Below are positions 7,048 through 62,862 of a stretch of DNA of 64,000 nt, piece by piece; within the stretch, counting starts at the first letter, position 1, and each line of letters begins with the position of its first letter. The DNA comes from an uncultured Clostridia bacterium. Lineage in GTDB: Bacteria > Bacillota > Clostridia > TANB77 > CAG-465. Where the stretch lies: contig CALXJE010000040.1 of NCBI GenBank assembly GCA_944388545.1, positions 13,938-77,937 on the forward strand. Reading direction: 5' to 3'. The position numbers were made by a program, and so were the translations under genes. A model generated the notes under the pieces. That model did not search any database, was not told where the DNA came from, and was given only the letters and a program-made list of their open reading frames with translations.

Positions 7048-9093
7048 TTACACTTGCAAAAAACATTCTAATTCTTCAGATGTGACTATTTTCTTTTTCA
7101 TAAGATATTTTGCCATACTTTCTATCTCACTCCAATGATCAGTCACAAATTGTTCAGTTTTGTCATATACCTTTCTAATAAGATCATTTGCTTTTTCATC
7201 AATTTTTATTGCAAGCTTTTCATTAAACAAATCATCGTCTAAAAGATAAATATTTTTGTATTCATCATCATCCATACCAAATTCTGCTATAACACTTTTA
7301 GCAAACTTTTTGGCTTTTTCTAAATCAGACGATGCTCCACTATCTATTCTTTTAGAAATTCTCTGTTGCGCTACTCTTCCTGCAAGTAGAGACATAATAT
7401 ATGCCTCTGCATACTCATGATCTATAGATATTATAGTATCTCTTTTTTCTAGCACATTAACTCCAAGATAATCGGCAGAAGGGATTATTGATATAGCTGT
7501 AACCTTATGAGCTTCATTTTCTTTTGTAAGTCTAGTAACAATATAATGTCCTATTTCATGGTAAGCAGTACAAAGCAAAGTATGTTTATCACACTTTATT
7601 TGTTTTTCAAAAAGTTCCTCATATACTTTGTTTACATCTTCTTTTGATGTTAACTTCTTACCTTTCATTTTAGCTATAGCCATACTTCTATCACAAAGAT
7701 CAAGCGTCTTGTCAGGATTACAGTTATCTGAATTAAAGCAACTTGAGCACAGAATAATATAATCGACTAGTTTGCTGGGTATTCTTACACCATGATACTT
7801 TTCCATGCTTTTTATTTTTGCTTTAATCATTCCTTTTACTTCACTTATTTTAGGTTCTTTTATTATTATAACCTCAAACCGTCTTTTAAAGGCGCCATCT
7901 CTTGATAGAATTTGGTTATATTCGTTTGTAGTTGTTGCGCCAACGAACACTACATCGTCTCTAGAAAGAATAGGCTTTAAAGATCCACTAAGATCAACAT
8001 TTCCTTCTGATGTTCCTCCTGCACCAAGCATTTGATGCATCTCATCAACAAATAGTATAATATTAGGTGTGTTCTCAAGAAATTGCTTTAAGATAGTCAC
8101 CTTAGTTTCAAATTCTCCTCTGTACTTAGTTCCTGCTACCATAGCATTTACATCCAGTGATAGCACAGTATAATTGTAGAATTCCTTTGGTGCTGTTTGA
8201 TTTACTATATGCTGTGTTATTGCCTCTATAATCGCTGTTTTACCTACTCCTGGCTCACCAACTAGTACTGCATTTCTCTTAGTTTTTTTAGAAAAGATGT
8301 TAAATGCCTTAAATATTTCTTTATCTCTACCTAGTATAGTACATTCTTCTCCTTTTTCATACTTGTTATTTAATACTTCAATACAAGATTCTAATGAAGG
8401 AGGAACAACTATCGGAAGAATTTCACTAGCTTCTGCATCAAGGATATTTGCGCCTAATTTAATACTTGATATGAATTCTTCTATATCTATTTGCATCTGT
8501 TTTAAAAGAAAGCTTAAAAACTTATATGCGCTACTTTCTTTATTTTTCAAAATACAATATAGAAGAACATTCAAATCAATGTAATCAAGACCCATAGCCC
8601 TGCATGTTTTTGATGCATCTTCGAGAGCCATCTCTAATTTATCAGAATAAAGCAATTCAATTATGCAATCATTAATTTCAAAGTTTTCTGCATCAGCAGT
8701 CACCTCTATTATTCCACTTAATACCTTAAGAACTTTACTTGCAATTTCATCATCTTCTGATAAATTAAAGTCAGAACATTTTAATAATGGTTCATTTTCT
8801 TCTTCCTCTGTTTCTTCATTAACAGTTTGGTCAAAGTAAGTATCAGCTGCTTCTTTTCCAAATATTTCTTCGTATATTTCTCTACTATTTAATATCTGAA
8901 AAACATCTGCTACAAGTGCAATTCCCATATCCAAAAAAAATTGTGTTATAATTGATTCTTGATTATTAAGAGCAGCAAATAATACATATGCGCTCCTTAC
9001 TTTTTCATCATCAAATTCGTTGGCAATAACTGTTGCAACCTCAAATGCTCTCCGAACCTCAGCGCTAACTTTAGCTTCATTCCAATTACTCAT
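7048..9093 (-). CDS. Soluble AAA+ protease: Clp-N domain + single ClpA/ClpC D1-type AAA+ module + FtsH-type M41 zinc peptidase domain
   Basis: N-terminal Clp_N-like repeats. Walker A LVGEPGVGKTAIIEAI, Walker B ILFVDEMHQM, sensor RDGAFKRRFEVI (all ClpA D1-like). C-terminus TAYHEIGHYIV...HKVTAISIIPS...LLAGRVAQ...GASSDLEKA aligns with FtsH TAYHEAGHA/HKVTIIPRG/LGGRxAEE/GASNDI. No TM segments. Confidence 0.7.
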   Translation of the reverse strand: MSNWNEAKVSAEVRRAFEVATVIANEFDDEKVRSAYVLFAALNNQESIITQFFLDMGIALVADVFQILNSREIYEEIFGKEAADTYFDQTVNEETEEEENEPLLKCSDFNLSEDDEIASKVLKVLSGIIEVTADAENFEINDCIIELLYSDKLEMALEDASKTCRAMGLDYIDLNVLLYCILKNKESSAYKFLSFLLKQMQIDIEEFISSIKLGANILDAEASEILPIVVPPSLESCIEVLNNKYEKGEECTILGRDKEIFKAFNIFSKKTKRNAVLVGEPGVGKTAIIEAITQHIVNQTAPKEFYNYTVLSLDVNAMVAGTKYRGEFETKVTILKQFLENTPNIILFVDEMHQMLGAGGTSEGNVDLSGSLKPILSRDDVVFVGATTTNEYNQILSRDGAFKRRFEVIIIKEPKISEVKGMIKAKIKSMEKYHGVRIPSKLVDYIILCSSCFNSDNCNPDKTLDLCDRSMAIAKMKGKKLTSKEDVNKVYEELFEKQIKCDKHTLLCTAYHEIGHYIVTRLTKENEAHKVTAISIIPSADYLGVNVLEKRDTIISIDHEYAEAYIMSLLAGRVAQQRISKRIDSGASSDLEKAKKFAKSVIAEFGMDDDEYKNIYLLDDDLFNEKLAIKIDEKANDLIRKVYDKTEQFVTDHWSEIESMAKYLMKKKIVTSEELECFLQV

Positions 9094-39359: not shown

Positions 39360-39920
39360 CTATTTTTTTACTTTCTTTCTATCTACTTCATTATTTGCTT
39401 TTATAGGAGCAAATATGTGAACTACGCTACCTACAAAGTACATTATTTCATTGCAATTATCTATTGCTTTCTTCTTTCCAATTGCTTTACCACCCACTGT
39501 CAACGATGCTACAACGCCTCCTACAACAAGTGTAATTATAAATGTATTAATACCAAGTGTATTACTTAAAGTAACAGATATAAGGGCAGAAAGTGAACCA
39601 CTAACTATACCACATACATCACCTACTACGTCATTACATATACTGGTAACTTTTTCTTTAGAACGTATAAGTTTAATAGTTTCTTTTGCGCCTTTGTGTT
39701 TTTTAGCTGCTTTTGCATGAAATGGAGCTTCTTCACAAGTTGCAACTGCCATTCCTATCATATCAAAAAATATTCCTATACCAATTATAACAATTAATAC
39801 TAGGAACGCTATAACTATATTAATTTTACTTAGTAGTGCGTTAGATACTCCATTAAATATTATTGAAAGCATAAATGTAATCACAAATGTTTTAATAATC
39901 CATTTATTACTATCTTTCAT
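39360..39920 (-). CDS. oapA: OLE-associated protein A-like 4-TM membrane protein
   Basis: 186 aa, about four TM helices, DxxxD motif (NDVVGDVCG, D97/D101). Lies immediately downstream of and co-oriented with the large ncRNA region. Confidence 0.6.
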   Translation of the reverse strand: MKDSNKWIIKTFVITFMLSIIFNGVSNALLSKINIVIAFLVLIVIIGIGIFFDMIGMAVATCEEAPFHAKAAKKHKGAKETIKLIRSKEKVTSICNDVVGDVCGIVSGSLSALISVTLSNTLGINTFIITLVVGGVVASLTVGGKAIGKKKAIDNCNEIMYFVGSVVHIFAPIKANNEVDRKKVKK

Positions 39921-39960
39921 TTTACCTCATCATTTCTATTTATACTATATATGTTATGGC

Positions 39961-40521
39961 AATATACTAAGTAAATTTTGCGGCTTAAGGTCAAGTTGGA
40001 TTTCCCCGATCGTTACTACTAGTTACCTTATAGCGGTTTCCCTTTAAAACAATCGACTAATAGTCACCTGATTAGTTACTCGATTACCACTGAGACCACA
40101 CTTCAATCCTTAATATATCAACATTATATGTTACAGTCTAGAGGTTTTCCCTAACAAAACTTAAACTATCTTTATCCGCTTTTGCAAATATAATTTCAAG
40201 AAACAGATATATAATCCACATGGCCTAAGAGGATTATATATGAACTTTCTATCCCGTATATTCACTCACGACAGGCTACAATATATATAGTACTCTCTAT
40301 ATATATGGTTACGTTTTAAATAGAGAAATAACTTAAAACGTGAGCTGAAAAAAAGGCAGTGCTTTTGTATGCCATTACAAATCCACCTTAATTTCTAAAA
40401 ACTCATACATACACCCCAGTCTGGGCGACCAAAGCATATATACAAGCCGCTAATATGTGCCTTTTAATGGATTTTTAGGCCCATCTTCAAATAGTGTTTT
40501 GACTAGAATACTGCGCCATAC
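39961..40521 (-). ncRNA. Large structured non-coding RNA, candidate OLE (ornate large extremophilic) RNA
   Basis: About 560 nt with no ORF in any frame. Locally higher GC than the flanks. Its own consensus sigma-A promoter on the minus strand. Immediately upstream of the oapA-like gene. Ends are approximate. Confidence 0.55.
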
Positions 40522-40528
40522 AACATAT

Positions 40529-40557
40529 ATTATACCATTTTAAAATAAAATAGTCAA
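40529..40557 (-). promoter_or_regulatory. Sigma-A promoter driving the ncRNA
   Basis: Minus strand TTGACT (40557-40552), 17-nt spacer, TATAAT (40534-40529). Confidence 0.7.
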
Positions 40558-50685: not shown

Positions 50686-51357
50686 TTATAATAAAAAAGA
50701 GGGTGTCCTAAAATAGGAACCCGAAAGCCAGAAAATCCAGCTCGATAAGAGTTGGATTTTTTGGTTTGAAAATTTGATTATATTTTTTAGTAGCAAGATG
50801 GCTTTTACCATCGCTTCTTCTTTTAAATTTTCTATATCTTTCATTAACTCGTGTACTTGCTCTTGAAGTTTTACTCTATATTTTTCTACTGCCTTTTTCC
50901 ATACAAATGTGTACTTATTTGCATTTGCCTCAATTTTCGTTCCATCTACAAAGTATTCTTCTGTGCTTATATATCCCTTCTTTTCTAATACTACAAGCAA
51001 TTCTACAAATACATCTTCCATTATGATTTTCATTTTGTCTTTTCTAAATGAATTAATTACATTTCTTGTTGGCTTATTTCCTCCTGCTAACCATATGAAT
51101 TTTATGTCACATTGTACTGCTTCTGCTATTTGTCTTGATGAGTACTTTTTTCTAATATACCCATACATTAATATTTTTAGCATCATTTTTGGAGAGTATG
51201 AATTACTTCCCAAAGGTGAATATGTTTCTATCAGTTTATCAATATTCATATTATCAATTAAATCATTTATCACAAATACTATATCATCTTTATCTATCAA
51301 TGTTTTCCATTCCATTGGTATCATTAATTGGTTTTGTTCATAATATTTAAATCCCAT
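50686..51357 (-). pseudogene. Truncated transposase (N-terminal half only)
   Basis: MGFKYYEQNQLM...MLKILMYGYIRKKYSSRQIAEAVQCDIKFIWLAGGNKPTRNVINSFRK typical of IS1182/IS5 N-terminal domain. No DDE catalytic half. 224 aa versus over 450 expected. Confidence 0.7.
50694..50760. repeat. Left terminal inverted repeat (67 bp)
   Basis: AAAAAGAGGGTGTCCTAAAATAGGAACCCGAAAGCCAGAAAATCCAGCTCGATAAGAGTTGGATTTT. Confidence 0.9.
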
Positions 51358-51446
51358 TTTTATACCTCCAAAGTCGCTATTTTTCACACCTGAATTATAT
51401 CATTAAAGTATTGATTTGTCAGTATTTAGGACGATTTTTAGCAAAG

Positions 51447-51513
51447 AAAATCCAACTCTTATCGAGCTGGATTTTCTGGCTTTCGGGTTCCTATTTTAGG
51501 ACACCCTCTTTTT
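51447..51513. repeat. Right terminal inverted repeat (67 bp, perfect reverse complement of the left)
   Basis: Direct comparison of the two sequences. 67/67 matches. Confidence 0.9.
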
Positions 51514-51530
51514 ATGATTTTTACACTTAC

Positions 51531-52739
51531 TTAAATTATTAATTCTAGCGGTAACTGATGACTTAAGAACCACAGAGTAGATGCGCTGTAGCAATAAGCA
51601 CCAGACTGAGTCAAAACAACAATATCTCCAATACTTGCATGTTCGATTGGCTCATCCCATGATATTTTATCTTCCGTCATACATAACGGTCCTTCAATAT
51701 CTACAATTTCATTTGAAACTTCGATTTGTTCATTATAAAGTTTGGGAATTTCCATATTTATAACATACACAGGATGTTTTCTATCAGTAGCAATAGGTAG
51801 TCTCATATGATTTACGCCACCAGCGGTTACAATATGCTTCATTCCCTTGCATTCTTTAATATCTACAATTCTTGTAGCATAATAACCTGCACTACCAACA
51901 ATATACTTTCCAAGTTCGAGGATGAATTCTTTTTTTTCAAAAGAATATTTCTCAATAGCAAACTTTAATCCTTCAAAGTATGCTTTAACATCAAAATATC
52001 TGTTTGATTTAGTATAATCTATTCCAAACCCTCCTCCAAAATCAATGACATCAATATTGCCAACTACCTGTTCTGCCTCTTTAACAAACTTAAATACAAA
52101 GTCTATATATTTAAGTAAAATCTGATAATCAAGTACACCATCTGCTGCAAACACGTGAAAACCACACACATTAATATGATCAAGTTTAGAAATAATTTCA
52201 TAGTCTTCATAAAATCTAGACTGATCTATTCCCATTTTTGTTGACATTCCTGCCATATACTCGAAAGCACCATCTAAAAAGTAATTAATATTAACTCTTA
52301 AAAGTACATTTACCTTTTCAATATCTTCTTCTTCAGCAATCGCATTAATGCGAATAGCTTCAACCACAGACTCTACATTAATAAATCTGATTTTTTCTTT
52401 TACAGCTTCATTAAGTTCAACTGTTGTTTTTCCAGGGCCTGTAAAAAGTACTTTAGAAGCACTTTCAAGACCAGCTGCTCTTGCAATGTTCAGTTCTCCA
52501 ATAGATGCAATTTCAACTCCAGTAATTCCACTATTAGCTAAGACATGTCTTAAAATATCTTTATTGGGGTTAGCTTTCATTGCATAATATAAAGAAACAT
52601 TTGCAAGCTTAAAGTTATTGATTTCATTTATTCTGTCTGTGACTTCTTCCAAGTCATAAATATAACATGTAGGATTTGACATTACTTCATGATTTGAAGC
52701 AAATACAGATTTAATATAATCTTCCACTTTTCTTTTCAT
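51531..52739 (-). CDS. Fold-III PLP-dependent decarboxylase (Orn/DAP/Arg decarboxylase family)
   Basis: RBS GGAGG plus MKRKVEDYI. PLP-lysine motif YAMKANPN. GGG and cysteine regions (EGPLCMTED). Confidence 0.75.
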   Translation of the reverse strand: MKRKVEDYIKSVFASNHEVMSNPTCYIYDLEEVTDRINEINNFKLANVSLYYAMKANPNKDILRHVLANSGITGVEIASIGELNIARAAGLESASKVLFTGPGKTTVELNEAVKEKIRFINVESVVEAIRINAIAEEEDIEKVNVLLRVNINYFLDGAFEYMAGMSTKMGIDQSRFYEDYEIISKLDHINVCGFHVFAADGVLDYQILLKYIDFVFKFVKEAEQVVGNIDVIDFGGGFGIDYTKSNRYFDVKAYFEGLKFAIEKYSFEKKEFILELGKYIVGSAGYYATRIVDIKECKGMKHIVTAGGVNHMRLPIATDRKHPVYVINMEIPKLYNEQIEVSNEIVDIEGPLCMTEDKISWDEPIEHASIGDIVVLTQSGAYCYSASTLWFLSHQLPLELII

Positions 52740-52825
52740 AAAAAATGCCTCCATTCTGAAATCAAAAAAGCAGGGTAACATAGTTGTAGCAATTATGCTA
52801 CCCTACTTTTTAACAAGTTACTGAA

Positions 52826-54502
52826 TTACTCTCTTTTTGAACCTTTTCTGATAACTACCTGTTTTTCGTCTTCCAAATGTGAGATAGTAGCATGTTTATG
52901 GTAATAATCATAATTGCCTAAGTAATTGGTAAATTTACCATTTTCAAGTTCAACCACTCTGTTTGCTACCTTGTTAATGAAATATCTATCATGAGATACA
53001 AAAAGTACCGTACCATTAAATCTGTTCAAAGCTTCTTCTAAAATCTCACGATTTCTAACATCTAAATGGTTAGTAGGTTCATCTAAAACTAAAAAGTTAA
53101 CATCATTTTGAACAAGTTCTGCAAATTTAAGTCTTACTTTTTCTCCACCAGAAAGGGAAGAAATACGTTTATGAACTTCTTCTCCATAAAAATGAAAAGA
53201 GGCGAGAGTAGAATATGCTTGAGTAAGATTACCTATATAATGTTTCTGAAATTCTTGAAGAATAGTTATATCTTCATTTTCAAAACAAACATTCTGAGGT
53301 AAATAACCAATTTTGACATTACATCCAATAACTGCTTTTCCATCAAATCCATCAAGCTGTCCTAATACAATCTTAAGAACAGTGGATTTACCACACCCAT
53401 TTTTTCCAATAAGGCACACTTTATCCTGATATGCAATTTCCATGCTTGCTCCATCAAGGATAATATTGTCACCATCATAAGAAAAATACAAATCTTCAAG
53501 TATTAATACATCATTTCCAGACCTAGTATCCTGATTAAACTTTAGAGCAATATCCTTCTCAGTTTTAGGCTTTTCAACTTTGTCCATTTCGTCAATACGT
53601 CTTTCAAGCTGTTTTGCAACTCTATATGCTTTTTCGGAACTTTGAGCACCCCAAGATCTATTCTTACGAATAGTTTCTTCCATATCAGCTATTTTTTTCT
53701 GCTGAGTAACATAAGCCTGTTCCAGTGCTTCACGTTCAATAGTTAAAGTTTCAACATACTGAGTATAATTTCCAAAATAAGTCTTAATTTTGTTATTTGC
53801 AATAGCAAATACTTTGTTTATCGTTCTATCCAAGAAATATCTGTCATGTGATACCAATAGCACAGAGCCTGAATATCCTTTGATAAAGTCTTCAAGCCAA
53901 CCAAGAGTTGGAATATCCAAATGATTAGTAGGCTCGTCCAACAGCAAAATATCTGGCTTTTGCAAAAGCATATGCGCAAGACATGCAATAGTCTTCTGTC
54001 CACCACTGAGTGAATTATATTCTTGATCTAATAATTTTATAATCTTAAGGTTTCCTGCCATTTTTTCAATATTTGCTTCAACCTCATATCCGCCCTTATT
54101 AAGAAATAGATCCTGAGTTTTTCCATAAGAATCCATTGCTTTTTCCAGATCCGCCTGTGAAGTAGCAGAATTACCCATAATTTTTTCCAGTTCACGCATT
54201 CTTTTCTGAAGTCTAGCAATATCACCATATGCTGTTCTTAAAAAATCTCGAACACTCATATCTTCTTTCATCGTAGGAGCAATCTGAGTTAAAAAGCCAA
54301 CTGTTGCATCTTTCCTCTTAGATACCGTTCCAGTAGTAGGTTTTTCCTTTCCAGCAATGAGCTTAAAAATTGAACTTTTTCCAGTTCCATTATCTCCAAC
54401 AATAGCAACCTTGTCCCCTCTATTAATCTGAAAAGTTGCACCTTCTAAGATGTTCTTAAATCCATAATTTAATGTAACATTATTTAGTTCTAGGTCTAAC
54501 AT
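52826..54502 (-). CDS. ABC-F family ATPase (two tandem NBDs, no TMD)
   Basis: Two Walker A (GDNGTGKSS, GKNGCGKST), two signature motifs (LSGGQK, LSGGEK). Linker between NBDs. 558 aa. Confidence 0.85.
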   Translation of the reverse strand: MLDLELNNVTLNYGFKNILEGATFQINRGDKVAIVGDNGTGKSSIFKLIAGKEKPTTGTVSKRKDATVGFLTQIAPTMKEDMSVRDFLRTAYGDIARLQKRMRELEKIMGNSATSQADLEKAMDSYGKTQDLFLNKGGYEVEANIEKMAGNLKIIKLLDQEYNSLSGGQKTIACLAHMLLQKPDILLLDEPTNHLDIPTLGWLEDFIKGYSGSVLLVSHDRYFLDRTINKVFAIANNKIKTYFGNYTQYVETLTIEREALEQAYVTQQKKIADMEETIRKNRSWGAQSSEKAYRVAKQLERRIDEMDKVEKPKTEKDIALKFNQDTRSGNDVLILEDLYFSYDGDNIILDGASMEIAYQDKVCLIGKNGCGKSTVLKIVLGQLDGFDGKAVIGCNVKIGYLPQNVCFENEDITILQEFQKHYIGNLTQAYSTLASFHFYGEEVHKRISSLSGGEKVRLKFAELVQNDVNFLVLDEPTNHLDVRNREILEEALNRFNGTVLFVSHDRYFINKVANRVVELENGKFTNYLGNYDYYHKHATISHLEDEKQVVIRKGSKRE

Positions 54503-54524
54503 AGTTAATCCTCCATTCTATAAG

Positions 54525-55412
54525 TTAAACAGTTGTATTTATTTTTGTTGTCATATAACTTAAAGATTCCATAATTAAATTGACGATTGTTGTTCCTGTA
54601 ATTATTGGACCCTCGCAATCCGGATTATACTCTACAAAGTCCATACCAATGATTTTCTTTGAAAATTTAATAATTTTCTTTAAATACTTAATGGTTTCTT
54701 CATATGATGGTCCTCCAGGTTCAGGGCAATTGGTAGCAGGTGCGTAAATAGGATTAAGGAAATCCATATCAAACGTAATATATACATTTTTATCTTTAAG
54801 AAACTCCAAAAGACTATTAATCTCTTCTTCAATCTTATCATATGGTATAACAATGTTTCCCATTTTCCTACTTTCGCATATAGCTGGTTCACAATTCAAG
54901 TTTCCTCTGATTCCAAAATGAATAATTTTTGAAATTTGATTTATTTTACATATTTCATTCATAACAGAACCATGTGGATAGCCTTCAAAGTCATCAATAA
55001 AGTCACTATGAGCATCAAACTGTACTACAAGAATATCATCATAGTCCTTTGCCATTCTTTTTACTGTTTCATACGTAATACTATGGTCTCCTCCAACGAA
55101 AATTGGAGTGCATCCAGCCTGAAAATTCAACCTAAAAATCTTGTTTTCAAGTTCTTCTAAACTAGATGCACATACATTTCCTAAATCATAAGCTCGTGTG
55201 TCTTTTAAAATATATCCCTCTTCTGGACTATAGACTTTAAGAGGAATACTGCTTCCATCAGCATTGGCATATCGAAAAGATAATTCTCTTACCTTATCTG
55301 CCGCCTTTTGTACACCTAAAAGATAATCTGCACTACAATATTTAATACCTATAAAGCAAAAATCATAGGAATTCAAAGGATTTGTTTCCAGTTCAAGAAA
55401 TGTTTTTCTCAT
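54525..55412 (-). CDS. Arginase/agmatinase-family ureohydrolase (amidino/guanidino-hydrolase)
   Basis: Binuclear Mn motifs GGDHSIT, FDAHSD, DMDFLNP, DFVEYNP. Confidence 0.85.
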   Translation of the reverse strand: MRKTFLELETNPLNSYDFCFIGIKYCSADYLLGVQKAADKVRELSFRYANADGSSIPLKVYSPEEGYILKDTRAYDLGNVCASSLEELENKIFRLNFQAGCTPIFVGGDHSITYETVKRMAKDYDDILVVQFDAHSDFIDDFEGYPHGSVMNEICKINQISKIIHFGIRGNLNCEPAICESRKMGNIVIPYDKIEEEINSLLEFLKDKNVYITFDMDFLNPIYAPATNCPEPGGPSYEETIKYLKKIIKFSKKIIGMDFVEYNPDCEGPIITGTTIVNLIMESLSYMTTKINTTV

Positions 55413-56672
55413 TTATCTCTCCTCCTTAAACAATTTAACAATTCTTTTGATTCCATCCATGAACTGATCATAACCTCTTGAAATTGTAACTCTAAAACTT
55501 AAATCTTCCAATGGAAGACCAAATACATTTCCTGGCGTAACTAAAATATTTTCCCTTTCAAGAATGTATACAAAAAGTTCATGAGATGTATATACTCCTT
55601 TTTTATGACATGCGTCTTCTCTAAAAGTGATATATATAATATTTCCTGCATCAGGATATACTACATTCTCTACAACATCACTTTCATAGATAAGATACTT
55701 ATAGGTATCCTCAAAAAGAGTAATTATTTGATTGTGATACTGCTCCTTTTCTGCAATATACTGAAGTGTGTCAGGTGAATTTTCTCCTTTGTCTACATTA
55801 ACTCTTTGAGTCATTTCGACAATTCCAAGTGCTTCAAGGAAAGTTGAATTAGAATAGTTTACTGCTTCTCCAAGTTCCAATAACCATCCAATAAACTTAG
55901 GATCTTTGCAAATAGTCCATCCACAACGCAAATCACCAAGTTGAGGAATATCTTTACTGAATCCTTTTATTTTAACTAATTTCTTATAGTCATGTGCAAG
56001 TTTAAAAATTTGAACTCGCTTATCATTAAACATAGGAGCCTCCTCGAAAATCGCATCATATATAATATAGATGTCTTTTTCAATACAAAACTCCACAATT
56101 TTATTAAGCTCATCATAATCAATAAACTTACATGCAGGATTTGCTGGATTTGTAATTAAGAGAGCAACTGTCTTATCTGTATAAGCACTTACAACATTTT
56201 CAAATGTCAGCTTATAATCATTTAACTTATCCATAAAAACAACTTTTGGAATAATTCCATAGAAAGTTAAACTCTTCATAAGTCCAGCGTATGCAGGTAC
56301 AGGATAAATAATTTCAATATCGTTTGCAAAATTATATTCTCTTGCAATTACCTGTGCAATAAAATTAAGTGCGCCCGTTGTTCCATTTCCTCCAACAATT
56401 ACCTCATCATAGCTTATTTTTTGACCTTCAATGTAAGTTTCATGAATAGCAATCAGTTCTCTTAACCGTTTTTTCCCTCCTGGATAAGAGTATCCCCAAT
56501 CCATATCTTCGTTTGAATCTTCCAAGGTTCTATAAATTTCTTTCCTTATACAGGAAAAAAGTGGAAATGTAAACCAATCAAGATTAGATGCATCCATCAA
56601 GAGTGCATGTCGTTCAAGACCAATGTCAAAATATTGTGACATTGTAAGTTTCTCTTTGTGACTATTACTCAT
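55413..56672 (-). CDS. Class I/II (fold-type I) PLP aminotransferase
   Basis: NPANPAC and KGFSKDIPQLGDLRCGW (PLP-Lys). RBS GGAGG plus ATG 56672. 8-nt overlap with the upstream gene. Confidence 0.8.
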   Translation of the reverse strand: MSNSHKEKLTMSQYFDIGLERHALLMDASNLDWFTFPLFSCIRKEIYRTLEDSNEDMDWGYSYPGGKKRLRELIAIHETYIEGQKISYDEVIVGGNGTTGALNFIAQVIAREYNFANDIEIIYPVPAYAGLMKSLTFYGIIPKVVFMDKLNDYKLTFENVVSAYTDKTVALLITNPANPACKFIDYDELNKIVEFCIEKDIYIIYDAIFEEAPMFNDKRVQIFKLAHDYKKLVKIKGFSKDIPQLGDLRCGWTICKDPKFIGWLLELGEAVNYSNSTFLEALGIVEMTQRVNVDKGENSPDTLQYIAEKEQYHNQIITLFEDTYKYLIYESDVVENVVYPDAGNIIYITFREDACHKKGVYTSHELFVYILERENILVTPGNVFGLPLEDLSFRVTISRGYDQFMDGIKRIVKLFKEER

Positions 56673-57759
56673 GTAAGATACCTCCATTTCTATTTTTACA
56701 TGTAAGTACAGTAACAATAGTAGCATTTCTATTACATTTAATATATTCTTCCGTTGCAGCCATTGCTGAAATTGATGTATAGTCATATTTCGCCATAATT
56801 TCTGGATTCATTAAGATGAAACTATCAATCTGTGAATCATTAACAGAAATAAAAAAGGCTTCATTTCTACTAGCCATATCATAGATCTTCCTGTAATTGA
56901 AGCAAGTATCATTTGAAAGAATTGTTTTTGAACTAGTAGGATTTTCAATAACATATAAATAGCTATCTATCCCCTTTTCAAATCCCTGTTTAATAGGATT
57001 TCCTCCAATAATTTCTACCACTCCAATTTTAGGGATTTTTGATATGATTCCTGCATTGTACATTTCTCTAAATGCCAGATTTTGAGCAATAATATCCATA
57101 CCACTACCACAAGGAATAATAACAGTATCTGGTACTTCTTTCATATCTCTAATAATTTCATAAGCCATAGACCTAAGTCCTAACATATATGAAACATTAG
57201 TATTTAAAAAGCCCCAGAATACCTCCTTGTGTTCAAGTGAATACTCCATAAAGTCTTCATAGCTTTTTACAAAAGTGTCACTATAAAAAACTTCATCTGC
57301 ATTTTTAATTTGTTGTAAACTAAAATCATCAACTCCCCTATGAACAAATACAATAGATTTTATTCCATATTCCTTTGCATAATGAACAATTGAAATTGCA
57401 CCACTACCACAAGACACTACTGCTACTTCTCGCTTTTTGTGCATAATGATTTCGTTCATAAAGTTTTCCATACCACGATCTTTAAAACTTCCTGTTGGAT
57501 TAACAGATTCATCTTTTAAAAAGACATTTTCTGAATACCTAATAATAGGAGTATTCCTAGCCTTATTTTTTGTTTCTTTCTGAACTTTTGGAAGAATTAT
57601 TTTCCTATTTAAAAATTTAATTTCAAATTCAGGAAAATAATCCTTTATAGTCCAAAAGTTAGGAGGAACTAAGTCAAGCTCAATGTCACTATGTCTGTGA
57701 TTAATCTGCTCCATTGGATAAGAAAATTGTTTTTTACAAATTTCACAAACAAGTATCAT
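56665..57759 (-). CDS. Threonine-synthase-like fold-type II PLP enzyme
   Basis: N-terminal CxxC zinc ribbon. FLKDESVNPTGSFKDRG PLP-lysine motif. Confidence 0.8.
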   Translation of the reverse strand: MILVCEICKKQFSYPMEQINHRHSDIELDLVPPNFWTIKDYFPEFEIKFLNRKIILPKVQKETKNKARNTPIIRYSENVFLKDESVNPTGSFKDRGMENFMNEIIMHKKREVAVVSCGSGAISIVHYAKEYGIKSIVFVHRGVDDFSLQQIKNADEVFYSDTFVKSYEDFMEYSLEHKEVFWGFLNTNVSYMLGLRSMAYEIIRDMKEVPDTVIIPCGSGMDIIAQNLAFREMYNAGIISKIPKIGVVEIIGGNPIKQGFEKGIDSYLYVIENPTSSKTILSNDTCFNYRKIYDMASRNEAFFISVNDSQIDSFILMNPEIMAKYDYTSISAMAATEEYIKCNRNATIVTVLTCKNRNGGILHE

Positions 57760-57767
57760 GATAATGC

Positions 57768-58991
57768 TTACTCCTTTCTAAGAATGTCTTGAATACGTCT
57801 GATAATATCTCGAGAATCTCTTATTCTCTTAGTATCCTGCCATAAATTATAACAATGCTGACAATCTTTAACGTTATCTAATTCTTTAACATCATATGTC
57901 ATGTTAAATTGTTTAATAGCATATACAAATTCATTAGTACAATGACTGCAATTACTTGAAGTCATATGTGGGAAAATTTCATTTCTATCAGCAAACCCTG
58001 TTCCCTGACTACCACTTAAAACTTCTTCATCAAAATATCCTCCAAGCCTTATATCTAACTTTTCAAAATTTATCTCATTATAAATTCCATGAATAATATC
58101 TCTTAAACTCCAAAGCCATGGTACTCTATAAAATCCCAGATTATACAGATAATTAGCTAAAGAATTGTCCTGCAAAGATGTTGGTTCAATAGAAACAGCA
58201 TCAAAACCAAATTCCTTAAAACAATCTATCGAAGTTTTTATTGCATCTTCAATTGCTTCAGATTCAGTAAGAAAAATCGGTTTAAAATTGACATATGCTA
58301 GAGCTTTCATTCCAAATTTATGCAAATTTTTAACAGAATCTTCGATTATCCTAGTATCATCAATAGCTTTATGATGACATAGTTCTCTAATTAAAAAATT
58401 AGTAGATTCTACTCCTATTCCAACTTCAACTAACCCATCATAGGCGCTAGAAATAACGCTAAGAATATCATCTGTGACATATTCTGCACGTGATTCAATA
58501 ATAACCTTTTTTACACCTTTGTACTTGTTTAAAGTCTCAAATATATATTTAACGGTTTCTACTGAAATCTCTTCTGGATTTAATAAGCTTCCTAAGTTAT
58601 ATACACAAACAACAGGATAATTATTAAGGTCAAAAGTTGAACCTACATTTTCTACAAAACTTCCATCTAATACAGAATTCCACTGTTCTACATAGTTTTG
58701 ATGTGTAATTTTTTCTGTAAGTGGAGCACCATTCAAATGTGCACACATTGAGCATCCACCATTTGTTTTATAGTGTTGACATCCATTAGATCTTAAAACG
58801 ATCATAACTCTTTCTACTGTTTTTCCTTCATAAAAAAATTTGTTAATCTCTACCTCTGCAATCTTAGTCTTTTCAAATGGTAAGTTTGGAGTATTAGCAC
58901 GCAACTCCTTGATTTTGTTTTCTACTAAACTAGAAGCCTTAGTATAAAAATCACATTCAGTACTTACTTTTTTTTCGCCAAATTTTTTCAT
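57768..58991 (-). CDS. Non-canonical radical-SAM-like enzyme (Cx8CxxC; Elp3/TIGR01212-like core)
   Basis: GCQHYKTNGGCSMC. Core blocks KKVIIESRAEYVTDD and VGIGVESTN...HHK...NLHKFGMKALAYV reminiscent of the radical SAM half-barrel. Extra C-terminal CxxC...CxxC. Confidence 0.5.
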   Translation of the reverse strand: MKKFGEKKVSTECDFYTKASSLVENKIKELRANTPNLPFEKTKIAEVEINKFFYEGKTVERVMIVLRSNGCQHYKTNGGCSMCAHLNGAPLTEKITHQNYVEQWNSVLDGSFVENVGSTFDLNNYPVVCVYNLGSLLNPEEISVETVKYIFETLNKYKGVKKVIIESRAEYVTDDILSVISSAYDGLVEVGIGVESTNFLIRELCHHKAIDDTRIIEDSVKNLHKFGMKALAYVNFKPIFLTESEAIEDAIKTSIDCFKEFGFDAVSIEPTSLQDNSLANYLYNLGFYRVPWLWSLRDIIHGIYNEINFEKLDIRLGGYFDEEVLSGSQGTGFADRNEIFPHMTSSNCSHCTNEFVYAIKQFNMTYDVKELDNVKDCQHCYNLWQDTKRIRDSRDIIRRIQDILRKE

Positions 58992-59145
58992 ACTGTTTAC
59001 CTCCTAACAAAGTATTTGACAATTTCAAACGTGTTTAATTTTAGGTTTGGTTTAGCATACTTTTTTATATAATTATTAACTTTTCAATGTGCTTTTGTCA
59101 AAAGATTTTATATTGAATATTAAGACTTTTCATAGTCCATTTACA

Positions 59146-60501
59146 TTATCCTAATCTAATGACAGATCTGTACTTTGTACCTTGATCATAAGGTAGTTTA
59201 TTCACTTTGTGAACAACAACCTCTGTGGTACGTGGTACTAAGGTATAAATGCTCTCTTTAATAGTAGGAATATCTAATGTATACTTTCCTTCAATTATAT
59301 AAAGATCAAGTTTTCCAATTTTAGTTTGTACAAATTGATATTTAAGTCCATGAACAGGGATATTATAAACTAAAAACCAGTTGTATGCGATATCCATAAA
59401 ACACGATGCCGGTATACTTTCACCAGTGTCAGTTATAATTGAATCCATATTACGACCTTTAACTCCTTCAATTATTCTGCCGTTATCTCCACAAGTACAT
59501 TTCTCATGTGTTGTAATTTTTACTAGATCACCTTGTATATAACGAATTATTGGAGTTGCAGTATTTAGTAAATTTGTACCTACTACAATTCCAATCTCAC
59601 CATTTGGAAGTTTTTTGCCATTTTTATCTACAATTTCAATAAAACATGCATCTTCTTCTAAATGATAATGATGTTTAGGACACTCTAATGCAATTCTTGT
59701 TAATTCTTCACTACTATATTCATCAAGAACATTTACGTCAAGTAATTCTGCAAGCATATTCCTCTGCTTTGCATTTGATTGCTCTGAATGAACAATCACG
59801 AGTTCTACTCCATAATTTGAGAGTTTGACTCCAGTTGATGCTATTTTTTCAAGATAAGTTGGATATGTAGAAATATATCTTGGCTTTGTTTCCATAATAT
59901 ATTTCACAGTTTCTTCGACTTTAGTTGTTGTTGGCAAATAATCTTGCTTATATTTACCACCTACATTGTTCACCCACCAAGGACAAGTGTAAATGTATAA
60001 TATGGTATCTTCAGCACAATACCTACCTCCCGACTGCATGTTAAACTGTCTAATTGTTTGCAACGTGTCCTTATATATTGCCTCTTCTGATACAGCAATC
60101 GTTACAAATTCACCACTTGAACCTGAGCTACGAGTTGAAAGTACAAAGTCATTGACATCTTTAACAATTTCATTCGGAAAACCTTCAATTAATTCCTCTT
60201 TATAAAGATATGGTAACTTAAAAAAATCATCCCATGTTTTTATACTACCTTTAACATATCCCACTTCAGAATATTTTTTTCTATACAATGGAATGTTATC
60301 AAAAGCATAATCAACAAGATAGCTTAATCTTTTGAGTTGCCATTTTCGAATATCTTCCAAAGGTTGATTAAGAAAAGTCATAAGATTGCTTCCAGACTCT
60401 TCTAACTGTTTTTGGAGTTTTTCATCATGAACAGGTAAAGTCATATAGCTTTTGCCTTTTTTTATTAAGTCAATGTACTCATTCTTAGAAATCTTTGCCA
60501 T
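59146..60501 (-). CDS. Phenylacetate-CoA ligase (PaaK)-like adenylate-forming enzyme
   Basis: RBS GGAGGGAGG plus MAKISKNEY. STRSSGSSGEF (P-loop-like AMP motif), YxxxDxxx C-terminal domain. 450 aa. Confidence 0.7.
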   Translation of the reverse strand: MAKISKNEYIDLIKKGKSYMTLPVHDEKLQKQLEESGSNLMTFLNQPLEDIRKWQLKRLSYLVDYAFDNIPLYRKKYSEVGYVKGSIKTWDDFFKLPYLYKEELIEGFPNEIVKDVNDFVLSTRSSGSSGEFVTIAVSEEAIYKDTLQTIRQFNMQSGGRYCAEDTILYIYTCPWWVNNVGGKYKQDYLPTTTKVEETVKYIMETKPRYISTYPTYLEKIASTGVKLSNYGVELVIVHSEQSNAKQRNMLAELLDVNVLDEYSSEELTRIALECPKHHYHLEEDACFIEIVDKNGKKLPNGEIGIVVGTNLLNTATPIIRYIQGDLVKITTHEKCTCGDNGRIIEGVKGRNMDSIITDTGESIPASCFMDIAYNWFLVYNIPVHGLKYQFVQTKIGKLDLYIIEGKYTLDIPTIKESIYTLVPRTTEVVVHKVNKLPYDQGTKYRSVIRLG

Positions 60502-60766
60502 AATTCCTCCCTCCTTAAAAAAATTCATCTACTAATATTGTTTTGACTATCTTTATTTGTAGTATAATTACACTACAAAACATTTACCAAAATAATTAAA
60601 GGCAAATATATTGATAACCGGTAATATTTTATCATTTTATGTTAACAGAGTCAATAGTTTTAATTGTTGTATTAAGTTGTTTTTTCAGTATTTTTAAGTA
60701 TTTAGAGAATATTTTATAAAAAAATAAAGCTTAATTAAAATTAAACCTTATTTTTTATAATCATTA

Positions 60767-61186
60767 TTATACTTTTTTATCTTCTAAATCTTGACTAAAT
60801 CTTAATAAATATCCATTTGGATCCTGTACTAGAAACTCCCTACATCCCATTAAAACATTATCTTTTCTATACCAATGATCTTCCATATCTACAAATATTT
60901 TATAATTTTCTCTCTTGAGTCTATTATATATTTCATCTATATTACTTACATCTATTTGAAAATTAATTCCTACTCCTAGTGGATATTCTAATTTTCCAGT
61001 TCCCCATTTATTACTTTTTTGATCTATTTCTTGTATCATAAGTTGCACATTTTCAAGCTGTAAAAATGCAAATCGATCTTCTTTTCTATCATATACTATA
61101 TTAAATCCAATCAGCTTTACATAAAATTCCAAACTATCATTTAAATCAAAAACGTCAAATTCTGGTAACATTTGATTCCATTTCAT
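60767..61186 (-). CDS. VOC (glyoxalase/bleomycin-resistance/dioxygenase) superfamily protein
   Basis: 139 aa, beta-alpha-beta-beta-beta module pattern. N-terminal FDVFDLNDSLEFYVKLIGF. Confidence 0.7.
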   Translation of the reverse strand: MKWNQMLPEFDVFDLNDSLEFYVKLIGFNIVYDRKEDRFAFLQLENVQLMIQEIDQKSNKWGTGKLEYPLGVGINFQIDVSNIDEIYNRLKRENYKIFVDMEDHWYRKDNVLMGCREFLVQDPNGYLLRFSQDLEDKKV

Positions 61187-61818
61187 TTATATTCCCTCTT
61201 TACACTATTTATAGAAGTATACCATATTAATAATAAAAAGAAAAGATATTAACTATTATTTTTATTTATACACTCTTAAGATATTATTCTTATTCTGATA
61301 ATTTAATCTTTTTATCTAAATTGCTAATATATACATCGTTTGAATAATTAAAAACTAAAAAAGTAATATTTTTAATAATCTCTCTATGTGGCTCTATACA
61401 TGTAAGATCAATTTTTTCAAATTTTCTAATACTACCATTTATAAAAATAGGATTAACTTTAGAAAATGCACATATAAATTCAAGTCGTTGTTTTAGAGAT
61501 TTCTCAAATTGTAATTCTTACTTAATTATTTTAATTTACTTACGCCATCTTTTCGTTTGGATAATTTTAATATTGTTTTTAAGCAACAAAAAATCAACCA
61601 GATTTTATTTTCTGATTGATTTTGTATCTATTCTATAGGTCATTAGTGGGCAGGGAAATCGTATAATCTTTTAACTATTGGTATTAAAGCATTTTTTATT
61701 TTCGCTCGTGCATTTTGCGTGCAAATAAAATACCAACATATAATGTTATATATTGTTAGAAAATTACAAATAATTATAAGTATATTAACTATAAAATTGT
61801 AATTTATAGCTATTCTTA

Positions 61819-62129
61819 TTATAATAAATTTATCCAATTTCTTCTTCCGTACATAATTCTAACAATTTGAATATCCTTATCTTTTATTCTATAAATTATA
61901 ATATAGTTATCTACTATTAATTTTCTTATTTCTAGTTTTCTTATTATGTCGTCATCTATAATTATATATATTTCAGGGTTGTCTTTCAAATCATTTATTT
62001 CTTTTCTTATTTTAGAAATTAATTTTTTTGGCTATTTCTGGTTCCTGTAAATTATATTTAATATATTGCTTTATTCCTATTAAATCTTGTTTAGATTCCT
62101 TTGAATATTCTATATTATACTTTTTCACA
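61819..62129 (-). pseudogene. RelE/ParE-family toxin, frameshifted
   Basis: Frame 1 VKKYNIEYSKESKQDLIGIKQYIKYNLQEPEIAKKINF then stop. Continues in a second frame KIRKEINDLKDNPEIY...RKLIVDNYIIIYRIKDKDIQIVRIMYGRRNW. The shift lies in an A/T homopolymer near 62030. Confidence 0.55.
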
Positions 62130-62143
62130 AATAAACCTTCTTT

Positions 62144-62398
62144 CTATATTTTATCTAGTTCTTCATAAAGTTCTTCTTCAGAAATTTTTTCTCCTTTATC
62201 TAAAGAGTTTATCCCTTTTTCTAATTCTTTGTATAGTATATGCTTATCTGTTAAAAGTTCATATAATTCAATACTCATCACAGCTAAATCCCCTGCACCA
62301 TTTTTTGTAATATATACTGGACTATTAGTTTGATGACAAATCGTAGAAATTTCGTTATAATTGTTTCTTAAATCAGAGTTTGGTCTAATAATTGGCAT
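62144..62398 (-). CDS. Phd/YefM-family type II antitoxin
   Basis: MPIIRPNSDLRNNYNEISTICHQTNSPVYITKNGAGDLAVMSIELYELL. RBS GGAG upstream. Abuts the toxin pseudogene. Confidence 0.7.
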   Translation of the reverse strand: MPIIRPNSDLRNNYNEISTICHQTNSPVYITKNGAGDLAVMSIELYELLTDKHILYKELEKGINSLDKGEKISEEELYEELDKI

Positions 62399-62654
62399 AA
62401 TAAACATCTCCATTAATATTATATACATATATTATCGAAATATTGATATGTAGTCAATATTTTTTATAAATTATTTGAATAAAAAATTACTATTTATTGT
62501 TACTAATATAGTATCATAAAGAAGAATAATTATTAATTCTATGTAAAAACGAAAAAACAATAAAAATGGCAAGTAATTTTGAATATAGTTTAAATAATGA
62601 AAATTGGTGGAGTTAAGTAATATCAATACTTTTAAATAATTTTAGACAAAAATA

Positions 62655-62690
62655 AAAAATGCTAAATTTAGTTAAAAATTCAGCATTTTG
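62655..62690 (-). terminator. Intrinsic terminator after tRNA-Tyr
   Basis: Near-perfect inverted repeat AAAATGCTGAATTTTTAACTAAATTTAGCATTTT followed by a U-run on the minus strand. Confidence 0.5.
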
Positions 62691-62774
62691 GTGGGCAGGG
62701 ATGGATTCGAACCATCGTAGGCGAATGCCAACAGATTTACAGTCTGCCTCCTTTAGCCACTCGGACACCTACCC
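62689..62774 (-). tRNA. tRNA-Tyr (GTA), class II with long variable arm, CCA encoded
   Basis: GGGTAGGTGTCCGAGTGGCTAAAGGAGGCAGACTGTAAATCTGTTGGCATTCGCCTACGATGGTTCGAATCCATCCCTGCCCACCA. Anticodon loop CUGUAAAUC. Confidence 0.9.
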
Positions 62775-62785
62775 AAATAAAAAAA

Positions 62786-62862
62786 TGGTGGGCCTTCAGG
62801 GATTCGAACCCCGGACCAACCGGTTATGAGCCGGTTGCTCTGACCAACTGAGCTAAAGGCCC
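62786..62862 (-). tRNA. tRNA-Met (CAT), elongator-type; tRNA-Ile2/lysidine cannot be excluded
   Basis: GGGCCTTTAGCTCAGTTGGTCAGAGCAACCGGCTCATAACCGGTTGGTCCGGGGTTCGAATCCCTGAAGGCCCACCA. Anticodon stem lacks the three G-C pairs of initiators. Confidence 0.85.

Follow-up and report, generated by a model that had tools for sequence, protein, structure and literature searches.

A Ligase–Radical SAM Gene Cluster with an ABC-F Gene and a Structured RNA Leader in Uncultured Gut Clostridia: A Candidate Route to a Translation-Targeting Small Molecule

A 64,000-nucleotide stretch of DNA from an uncultured Clostridia bacterium (contig CALXJE010000040.1), called the window here and numbered from its first letter, carries eight intact minus-strand genes between positions 51531 and 61186 that an earlier note had singled out as resembling an amino-acid-derived small-molecule biosynthetic cluster. 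All eight open reading frames (ORFs) lie where that note had placed them, and Pfam and NCBIfam searches of all eight proteins uphold its family calls. In the direction of transcription they encode a VOC/glyoxalase-fold protein, a PaaK-like adenylate-forming ligase (LIG), a radical S-adenosylmethionine (SAM) enzyme resembling RaSEA (rSAM), a threonine-synthase-like fold-type-II pyridoxal phosphate (PLP) enzyme (PALP), a class I aminotransferase-fold PLP enzyme (AT), an arginase-family ureohydrolase (ARG), an ABC-F ATPase, and a PLP decarboxylase of the ornithine/diaminopimelate (DAP) decarboxylase fold (DC). We put the chance at about even that the locus belongs to a widespread, uncharacterised, and diversifying family of clusters that operates independently of nonribosomal peptide synthetases (NRPS) and polyketide synthases (PKS) and makes a translation-targeting antibiotic. 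The clusters are read as diversifying and aimed at translation because a fixed core is combined with interchangeable tailoring genes and with ribosome-associated NTPases that have been recruited repeatedly.

Organization of the Locus

The operon proper comprises seven genes (60621 to 51531) and not the eight that had been joined together previously, because the VOC gene (60767..61186; this and all cluster features given below are on the minus strand) is followed by a terminator-like hairpin with a T-run (60715..60750) and then by a promoter and leader, which makes it a transcription unit of its own. A promoter scan placed a sigma-70-type promoter (TTGACT, 17 nt, TAAAAT with TG) at 60626..60654, and both its −35 and −10 elements are conserved in 13 loci, the alignment of which also keeps a hairpin at the post-VOC terminator position. 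The VOC/LIG junction measures about 265 nt and the LIG/rSAM junction 154 nt; rSAM and PALP are separated by 8 nt, PALP and AT overlap by 8 nt, AT and ARG abut (0 nt), and gaps of 22 nt and 44–86 nt precede the ABC-F and DC genes, respectively. The AT start was corrected, with 56672 (419 aa, matching relatives) being most likely instead of 56786; LIG most likely starts at 60501, and DC possibly at 52739. The LIG/rSAM spacer (58992-59145, ~154 nt), with a promoter-like site at 59072..59101 (near-consensus TTGACA, 18 nt, AATAAT), is peculiar to the window genome and one related locus (L010), and it is 5–17 nt long in other relatives. Another terminator-like hairpin (GAAAAUCCA...UGGAUUUUC, then UUUGC) follows the last gene at 51446..51476. 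Both hairpins were read from the sequence, the second having too few G-C pairs for the terminator scan.

By reading, the catalytic motifs are intact, namely the lysines of the PLP enzymes, the GGDHS, DAHSD, and DMD Mn ligands of ARG, the P-loop of the ligase, and the three-Cys motif of rSAM. For no primary-pathway equivalog does any of the enzymes attain the curated cut-off, which agrees with the previous impression that the combination is no recognisable primary pathway. Likewise borne out is the statement that NRPS and PKS genes are absent, as the Pfam and NCBIfam searches of the cluster proteins gave no condensation, ketosynthase, or carrier domains. Between the genes, no small ORF that could encode the precursor of a ribosomally synthesized and posttranslationally modified peptide keeps its frame among the loci. 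The GC content of the window is ~28%, and the base composition shows no trace of a recent transfer.

The Ligase and Radical SAM Enzyme

LIG (59146..60501, 451 aa) has no Pfam match, and its NCBIfam matches to PaaK, DVU1553, F390, and BagE models all fall far under the cut-offs, with the PaaK/DVU1553/F390 models scoring 55–107 bits and the PaaK equivalog 102.7 bits against a cut-off of 646. No paa genes are found near the cluster. Among proteins in the PDB, LIG matches PaaK at 80 bits and also AjiA1/NatL2. Together with BagE and FevW, AjiA1 and NatL2 are CoA-independent PaaK-like ligases of the same family as LIG, which in small-molecule pathways turn acyl-adenylates into esters or amides without an intermediate; similarity to them amounts to just 33–41 bits, and their substrates are unrelated aromatic acids.

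The radical SAM enzyme (57768..58991, 407 aa) carries a C71-x8-C80-x2-C83 motif and a C-terminal CxxC...CxxC pattern, and C71, C80, and C83 are invariant across 20 homologues, as expected for the three-Cys signature of radical SAM enzymes. It matches the RaSEA model TIGR01210 alone (E 2.8e-54, model positions 9–300 of 313) with 184.5 bits, under the equivalog cut-off of 212.15; the homologue in the distant locus L015 scores 170.9 bits. No sequence relative was found among solved structures, an exact-sequence look-up of the window rSAM and its 100%-identical counterpart P0001 returned no match, and NCBIfam and Pfam hold no model specific to LIG or to the window rSAM branch. The two genes lie side by side, with frequent overlap, in all loci down to 42% identity and in hosts whose GC content ranges from 25 to 51%. 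The LIG–rSAM pair, usually translationally coupled, is the sole invariant of the cluster family.

The closest characterised precedent for such a pair is the archaeosine system of Euryarchaeota. According to the summary of the work of Yokogawa et al. (2019) in PMC11298593, RaSEA forms a complex with ArcS; ArcS joins lysine via its nitrogen to preQ0, and RaSEA strips off the lysine skeleton to leave an amidine. The window rSAM is a clear RaSEA homologue, its sub-cut-off score notwithstanding, and it is likewise encoded beside, and probably complexed with, an enzyme that would first attach the nitrogen of an amino acid to a carbon electrophile. The differences are equally plain: the host is bacterial, the partner in every locus is an ATP-dependent PaaK-like ligase instead of ArcS, and there are no TGT or preQ0 genes nearby and no TGT- or ArcS-like gene in the cluster, by a search that did not extend to the rest of the genome. 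In addition, the window rSAM has a clade-specific insertion (FDEEVLSGSQG...), and its substrate is probably a small molecule.

More distant members of the rSAM family were encountered in other settings. Sister subfamilies (34–39% identity) in L018, L020, and L090-L092 are each followed by a stand-alone B3_4 (phenylalanyl-tRNA synthetase beta-like) domain protein, and the combination appears to be a distinct, undescribed two-gene system. In L090-L092, the rSAM homologue, 39% identical to that of the window, is fused to a DDAH/arginine-deiminase-like (guanidino-modifying) domain. The representative library also contains fusions to a TIR domain (P0171) and to a GNAT domain (P0162, an Elp3-like architecture). 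A tblastn search of plasmids gave only 24–31% homologues. One of them, a 28%-identical rSAM homologue (L089) on a conjugative 359-kb plasmid of B. thuringiensis HD1002 (NZ_CP009349.1, 310050-326952), sits inside a cluster of adenylating-enzyme, acyl carrier protein, ketosynthase, FabZ, FabG, AsnB, phosphopantetheinyl transferase, and ABC-exporter genes that is unrelated to the window cluster. This cluster is plainly biosynthetic, which speaks for a biosynthetic reading of the window genes as well.

Distribution and Cluster Types

Presence across related genomes was among the checks that the earlier note had named, and the gene set was found at 60–90% identity in all 10 of the 10 species-level genomes, which are uncultured Clostridia metagenome-assembled genomes from human, mouse, and rabbit gut, and in about 20 metagenome loci; rSAM alone has hundreds of homologues at 76–100% identity. 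The eight-gene set is not a chance grouping. For a wider survey, a metagenome scan gave 66 loci, and ~60 related loci were compared by mapping the eight proteins and recurrent neighbours. A representative search indicates that beyond the gut clade the family forms a sparse lineage.

Three architectures emerge from this comparison. Type A, that of the gut clade, consists of VOC, LIG, rSAM, PALP, AT, ARG, ABC-F, and DC. Type B, at 62–69% identity on low-GC rumen and gut contigs, combines a SPASM radical SAM enzyme, one or two ligases, rSAM, a GNAT protein, ABC-F, an MfnD-like ATP-grasp ligase, and a "variant" radical SAM enzyme, and some of these loci add an ArgE-like M20 deacylase, a KamA/EpmB-like aminomutase (seen in L037), and an arginase-family gene. 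Type C, at 48–56% identity in environmental loci with a GC content of up to 51%, is built on LIG, rSAM, and PALP, to which a Ddl-like ligase, ARG, a C39-like peptidase, AT–DC pairs, VOC, a B12 radical SAM enzyme, and an HDAC-like enzyme are variably added. Among the accessory genes of relatives is an ABC exporter pair, and the arginase-family gene recurs among related clusters. The proposal of an amino-acid-derived small-molecule cluster thus gains from the fixed LIG–rSAM core and from the variable tailoring-, prodrug-, and resistance-type genes in relatives, and a small molecule made from amino acids is the most likely product.

The most distant full cluster (L015/L016, 1-8400; 51% GC, 51% identity) directly follows a gene for a Fur-family regulator and an operon for ZnuA/ABC/ABC-3 metal uptake, with a NikR-like gene and a deoxyhypusine-synthase-like gene also near. 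This cluster contains a duplicated AT–DC pair and two unknown genes.

Translation NTPases

The strongest functional clue to the cluster, which the earlier note had left unused, is the ABC-F gene (52826..54502). The 558-aa protein has two PF00005 domains and the PF12848 (ABC_tran_Xtn) linker, lacks a membrane domain, and scores 454.8 bits against NF000355 (ribosomal protection-like ABC-F), above the cut-off of 380. Scores against the named antibiotic resistance subfamilies (Vga, Msr, Lsa, Sal, OptrA, CplR, and the producer type) are 183–352 bits, below cut-offs of 680–1450, and the protein is roughly equidistant from EttA, Uup, PoxtA, and VmlR2. On these matches, the gene is a candidate ribosome-protection (self-resistance) gene. 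Because the cluster would then carry its own ribosome-protection gene, its product probably acts on protein synthesis. Resistance ABC-Fs encoded in antibiotic producer clusters include OleB, CarA, TlrC, SrmB, LmrC, and VarM. The window protein is likewise soluble, has two nucleotide-binding domains with a linker, and is co-transcribed with biosynthetic genes; it differs in reaching no named subfamily cut-off, in its EttA-like linker, and in belonging to low-GC anaerobes.

Nearly all loci carry a translation NTPase. An ABC-F gene is present in all type-A loci and in about 13 of the 15 type-B loci, with type-A and type-B proteins about 40% identical to each other and 34% identical to a Uup-like paralogue, a separate gene that adjoins the cluster in most relatives. 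In type C, the NTPase is a divergent ABC-F at some loci and a DRG/Obg-like GTPase bearing a TGS domain at others. The type-C ABC-Fs share just 27–30% identity with the others while still being bona fide ABC-Fs, a divergence that indicates that translation NTPases were recruited more than once. The GTPase, found in L048, L049, L050, L055, L058 (about 7700-8620), and L046, is short (~305 aa) with the TGS domain at its C terminus, and its gene overlaps the ligase start in environmental type-C clusters, in the place of ABC-F.

The Leader RNA

The seven-gene operon begins with a structured 5′ leader (60499..60621), delineated with RNAalifold and a covariance model. A 12-locus alignment folds into a three-way junction of about 120 nt, in which stem P1 (GAUUAUC/GAUAGUC), a covarying P2 hairpin, and a P3 hairpin (GUGUAAUUACAC) are followed by a conserved single strand and the Shine–Dalgarno sequence. 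The covariance model matches directly upstream of the ligase gene only, in 15–16 type-A gut-clade loci including 2 outside the seed, and the rest of the window and about 860 kb of related loci gave no further match. In the alignment, which had been fitted to the covariance model so that pair counts are biased towards the structure, 97% of cells are paired compared with 28–43% when partners are slid, 13 of the 17 pairs show double changes, and the observed values were reached by 0 of 500 shuffles. A search of Rfam 15 across 58900-61800 gave no match at E ≤ 1. A leader or precursor peptide in the VOC–LIG spacer was considered and rejected; short ORFs are present, but their frame and start codon are not conserved, which indicates that conservation acts on the RNA level. 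The leader is a conserved, covariation-supported structure dedicated to the seven-gene operon in the gut clade, and it is a candidate orphan riboswitch or other cis-regulator that would control expression of the operon.

Tailoring Enzymes and the VOC Protein

The remaining enzymes resemble known families without reaching the score of any specific function. PALP (56665..57759), with an N-terminal CxxC and a PF00291 domain bearing the NPTGSFKDRG lysine motif, scores 62–95 bits against ThrC models, all sub-cut-off (TIGR00260, 62.3 bits against 167.1). AT (55413..56672, PF00155) has its best NCBIfam match in GntC at 101.6 bits (cut-off 415), with weaker matches to VioD (45.9 bits, cut-off 391), MppQ, and methylarginine aminotransferase; its best PDB match is an archaeal aromatic/aspartate aminotransferase, and the GntC structure 8fft gives just 28 bits. 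ARG (54525..55412, PF00491) is agmatinase-like, with 131.1 bits against the agmatinase SpeB model TIGR01230 (cut-off 174.3) and with a putative agmatinase, 3lhl, as its best PDB match; proclavaminate amidinohydrolase (1gq6) scores 62 bits. Proclavaminate amidinohydrolase and aminopropylagmatine ureohydrolase belong to pathways in which a guanidine serves as a masked amine and urea is removed late to reveal it. As in those cases, an arginase-family enzyme is set within a biosynthetic pathway, the likeness being at the family level.

DC (51531..52781) scores 214.6 bits against the LysA model (cut-off 297.9) and, among solved structures, 196 bits against 6knh, which we take to be SbnH of staphyloferrin B biosynthesis; BtrK of the butirosin pathway follows at 138 bits and true DAP decarboxylases at ≤124 bits. 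SbnH and BtrK, the best solved relatives of DC, both decarboxylate side-chain-conjugated amino acids, in systems that differ from the window cluster in that the latter has neither a siderophore synthetase of the NRPS-independent (NIS) type nor a carrier protein.

The VOC protein (139 aa, PF00903) finds its best solved relatives in 2rk9 (107 bits) and in the N-demethylindolmycin synthase PluN2 (6p29; 69 bits, E 4.8e-18); an uncharacterised Vibrio protein is matched better than PluN2. Its gene adjoins the cluster in all type-A loci, lies downstream in L014, occurs in type-C loci L047 and L055, and is missing from many related clusters. PluN2 comes from Pseudoalteromonas; in the Streptomyces pathway, which also includes the PLP-dependent arginine oxidase Ind4, an ATP-dependent reaction of Ind3 and Ind6 joins an acid to dehydroarginine, and the arginine guanidine serves as the nitrogen nucleophile while the arginine skeleton is discarded (PMC8246080). 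Like the indolmycin pathway, the window cluster brings together a ligase that would use ATP, a small protein that may act as a helper, and a PLP enzyme of the aminotransferase fold. The window cluster has no imine reductase, methyltransferase, or resistant tryptophanyl-tRNA synthetase, and the O2-dependent step of indolmycin assembly would need a radical SAM replacement in these anaerobes. Resistance also differs, being conferred by an aminoacyl-tRNA synthetase copy in the indolmycin case and presumptively by ABC-F in the window cluster.

Genomic Context and Inheritance

The same neighbourhood surrounds the cluster in 6–7 of the 10 related genomes; one flank holds an ABC/MacB pair, a beta-eliminating lyase, and a MazE-like gene, the other the Uup-like ABC-F, and the flanking genes are about as conserved as those within the cluster. 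Both flanks differ in the window. Upstream are rpoD, tRNA-Met, tRNA-Tyr, and a decayed Phd/RelE module; downstream are a truncated transposase with only the N-terminal domain of DUF772 by domain search (50686..51387, minus strand), which forms the boundary of the cluster on that side, a sortase, an adhesin-like gene, and Mfd. The accessory context that the earlier note had described, with an insertion sequence remnant on one side and a decayed toxin–antitoxin locus and tRNAs on the other, was therefore found, as the DUF772 remnant, the Phd gene with its frameshifted toxin, and tRNA-Met and tRNA-Tyr. The horizontal acquisition that had been read from it is not shown. With the cluster in at least 10 related species, a shared neighbourhood, divergence equal to that of the flanks, and an unremarkable GC content, the cluster is old in the clade and recent horizontal acquisition is not supported. 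Judging from these comparisons, it is ancestral and mostly syntenic in the clade, and only its position in the window genome is rearranged.

The upstream boundary (61646..62428, minus strand) holds an 11-nt repeat of the tRNA-Tyr 3′ end, a frameshifted RelE/ParE-like toxin gene, and a Phd/YefM antitoxin gene (62144-62428). The repeat (TCCCTGCCCAC) occurs at 61646-61656 and 62691-62701. That it might be an attachment repeat bracketing the cluster was considered and discarded; the pair encloses the decayed toxin–antitoxin module only, and there is no third copy. The region 61646-62862 (minus strand) resembles a scar left by a small element that had inserted at tRNA-Tyr, the cluster not included.

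Elsewhere in the window, positions 39940-40535 (minus strand) match RF01071, the model of the OLE (ornate large extremophilic) RNA, over its full length (339.7 bits, positions 1–616 of the model). The ORF beside it (39360-39920) encodes a small membrane protein with a weak CNNM match, possibly its partner protein.

Proposed Function and Alternatives

In the reading that we favour, PALP, AT, ARG, and DC would build and trim an amide derived from arginine or a diamino acid. By analogy with the systems above, the PLP enzymes would supply a non-proteinogenic, probably guanidino-bearing amino acid, and LIG, acting without CoA, would adenylate a carboxylate and join it to an amine or guanidine nitrogen. 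The radical SAM enzyme may then perform radical chemistry at the C–N bond beside that nitrogen, as RaSEA does on its lysine–amidine adduct, after which DC would take the alpha-carboxylate off the conjugated amino acid and ARG would release urea to unmask a primary amine. The product is predicted to target translation, with the co-transcribed ABC-F shielding, or signalling from, the producer's ribosome and the VOC protein acting in binding, in immunity, or as an Ind6-like helper. The likeness of the VOC protein to PluN2, the agmatinase-like ARG, and the RaSEA-like rSAM are among the features that suggest an acylated product derived from arginine or a diamino acid. The guanidino link in the earlier note is plausible, given the amidine–lysine chemistry of RaSEA, the rSAM–DDAH fusion, the recurring arginase-family gene, and the likeness between VOC and PluN2.

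What the sequence comparisons show is that the genes are intact and conserved, together with the core pair, the recurrence of translation NTPases, and the structure of the leader, whereas the chemistry, the target, and the role of the leader are inferred. Several points weigh against an antibiotic. Its product, target, and activity are predictions only, and the chemical steps are all drawn by analogy; LIG is likened to Ind3 by role only, and the resemblance of AT to arginine-handling enzymes is weak. No exporter is encoded within the eight-gene set of the window. The ABC-F linker has the length of that of EttA, and the protein shows no clear affinity to a characterised resistance subfamily, so it could be a housekeeping-type factor. 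Vertical, syntenic inheritance, with divergence matching that of the flanks in the gut clade, also fits a conserved physiological function. The last three of these points are shared by an explanation that we think unlikely, in which the product of the operon is a metabolite that is conserved and stays in the cell, such as an unusual polyamine or guanidino-amine, reached by a protected-amine logic that runs from amino acid to decarboxylated amine to ureohydrolase; the metabolite would support or tune translation, and ABC-F would serve as a translation factor under common regulation and not for resistance. Routes via aminopropylagmatine and via carboxyaminopropylagmatine are comparable, the agmatinase-like ureohydrolase, decarboxylase, and aminotransferase are all present, and a deoxyhypusine-synthase-like gene lies near the distant L015 cluster. 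To our knowledge, however, a PaaK-like ligase and a radical SAM enzyme occur in no known polyamine pathway. Relatives retain the core but have sets of ATP-grasp, GNAT, peptidase, and aminomutase genes where the window cluster has those for the PLP enzymes, the ureohydrolase, and the decarboxylase, which is unlike a primary pathway, and ABC-Fs and a GTPase were recruited independently. Moreover, VOC/bleomycin-resistance-like, GNAT, and M20 genes are typical of immunity or prodrug functions.

The association with translation NTPases is also consistent with LIG and rSAM modifying a macromolecule of translation (tRNA, rRNA, a ribosomal protein, or an EF-P-like factor) with an unusual amino acid from the PLP enzymes, the ABC-F or GTPase being partner or target. 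ArcS–RaSEA on tRNA and EpmA–EpmB on EF-P are analogues of such an activity. RaSEA works on tRNA in complex with its transferase (PMC11298593). Sister rSAM subfamilies pair three times with B3_4 proteins, which are tRNA-binding and resemble the synthetase beta subunit, the associated GTPase has a TGS domain, and L037 encodes the KamA/EpmB-like aminomutase. Against this, the Pfam and NCBIfam searches found no RNA-binding or PUA/TGT-like domain in LIG or rSAM; the highly variable content of the clusters, with peptidases, GNAT proteins, exporters, and B12 radical SAM enzymes, is atypical of modification systems; and the interchangeability of ABC-F lineages argues against one specific protein partner. 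We regard macromolecule modification as quite unlikely on this balance. Very unlikely, in our estimate, is a metallophore of the aminopolycarboxylate or polyamine-chelator type. DC is closest to the presumed SbnH structure, and the 51%-identity L015/L016 cluster has the metal-uptake neighbourhood already described, but the survey of ~60 loci shows such a neighbourhood in one lineage only, for which reason this possibility was down-weighted. The Pfam and NCBIfam searches also found no NIS synthetase, opine dehydrogenase, nicotianamine-synthase-like gene, receptor, or importer in the window cluster, and a chelator would leave the ABC-F and GTPase genes unexplained.

A more specific form of the antibiotic reading, which we consider doubtful, is that LIG and the RaSEA-like rSAM constitute a new two-enzyme module. 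The side-chain nitrogen of an Arg-, Lys-, or Orn-type acid would be tied to a carboxylate and the skeleton then cut off radically, in an O2-independent counterpart of the ArcS/RaSEA and Ind4/Ind3/Ind6 logic. With such a module, gut and rumen anaerobes that are abundant but uncultured would make a new chemical class of ribosome-targeting antibiotics, with ABC-F or DRG-like proteins guarding the ribosome and a riboswitch of a new class as the switch.

Conclusions

Clusters that are NRPS-independent, derived from amino acids, and self-protected by an ABC-F are a known kind; the core enzyme pair and the leader RNA of this one are undescribed, and no description of the cluster family was found in the open-access full-text literature. 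The conserved LIG–rSAM pair offers a simple handle for genome mining. If the antibiotic reading is true, gut Clostridia that are prevalent but uncultured, together with many anaerobes of the rumen and the environment, have an undescribed family of small-molecule clusters aimed at the ribosome, and RaSEA-type radical SAM enzymes, known to date only from archaeal tRNA modification, would gain a bacterial small-molecule role. The leader would be a new candidate riboswitch, whose ligand could expose the chemistry of the pathway, and the human microbiome would gain a new source of translation inhibitors and ABC-F resistance genes.

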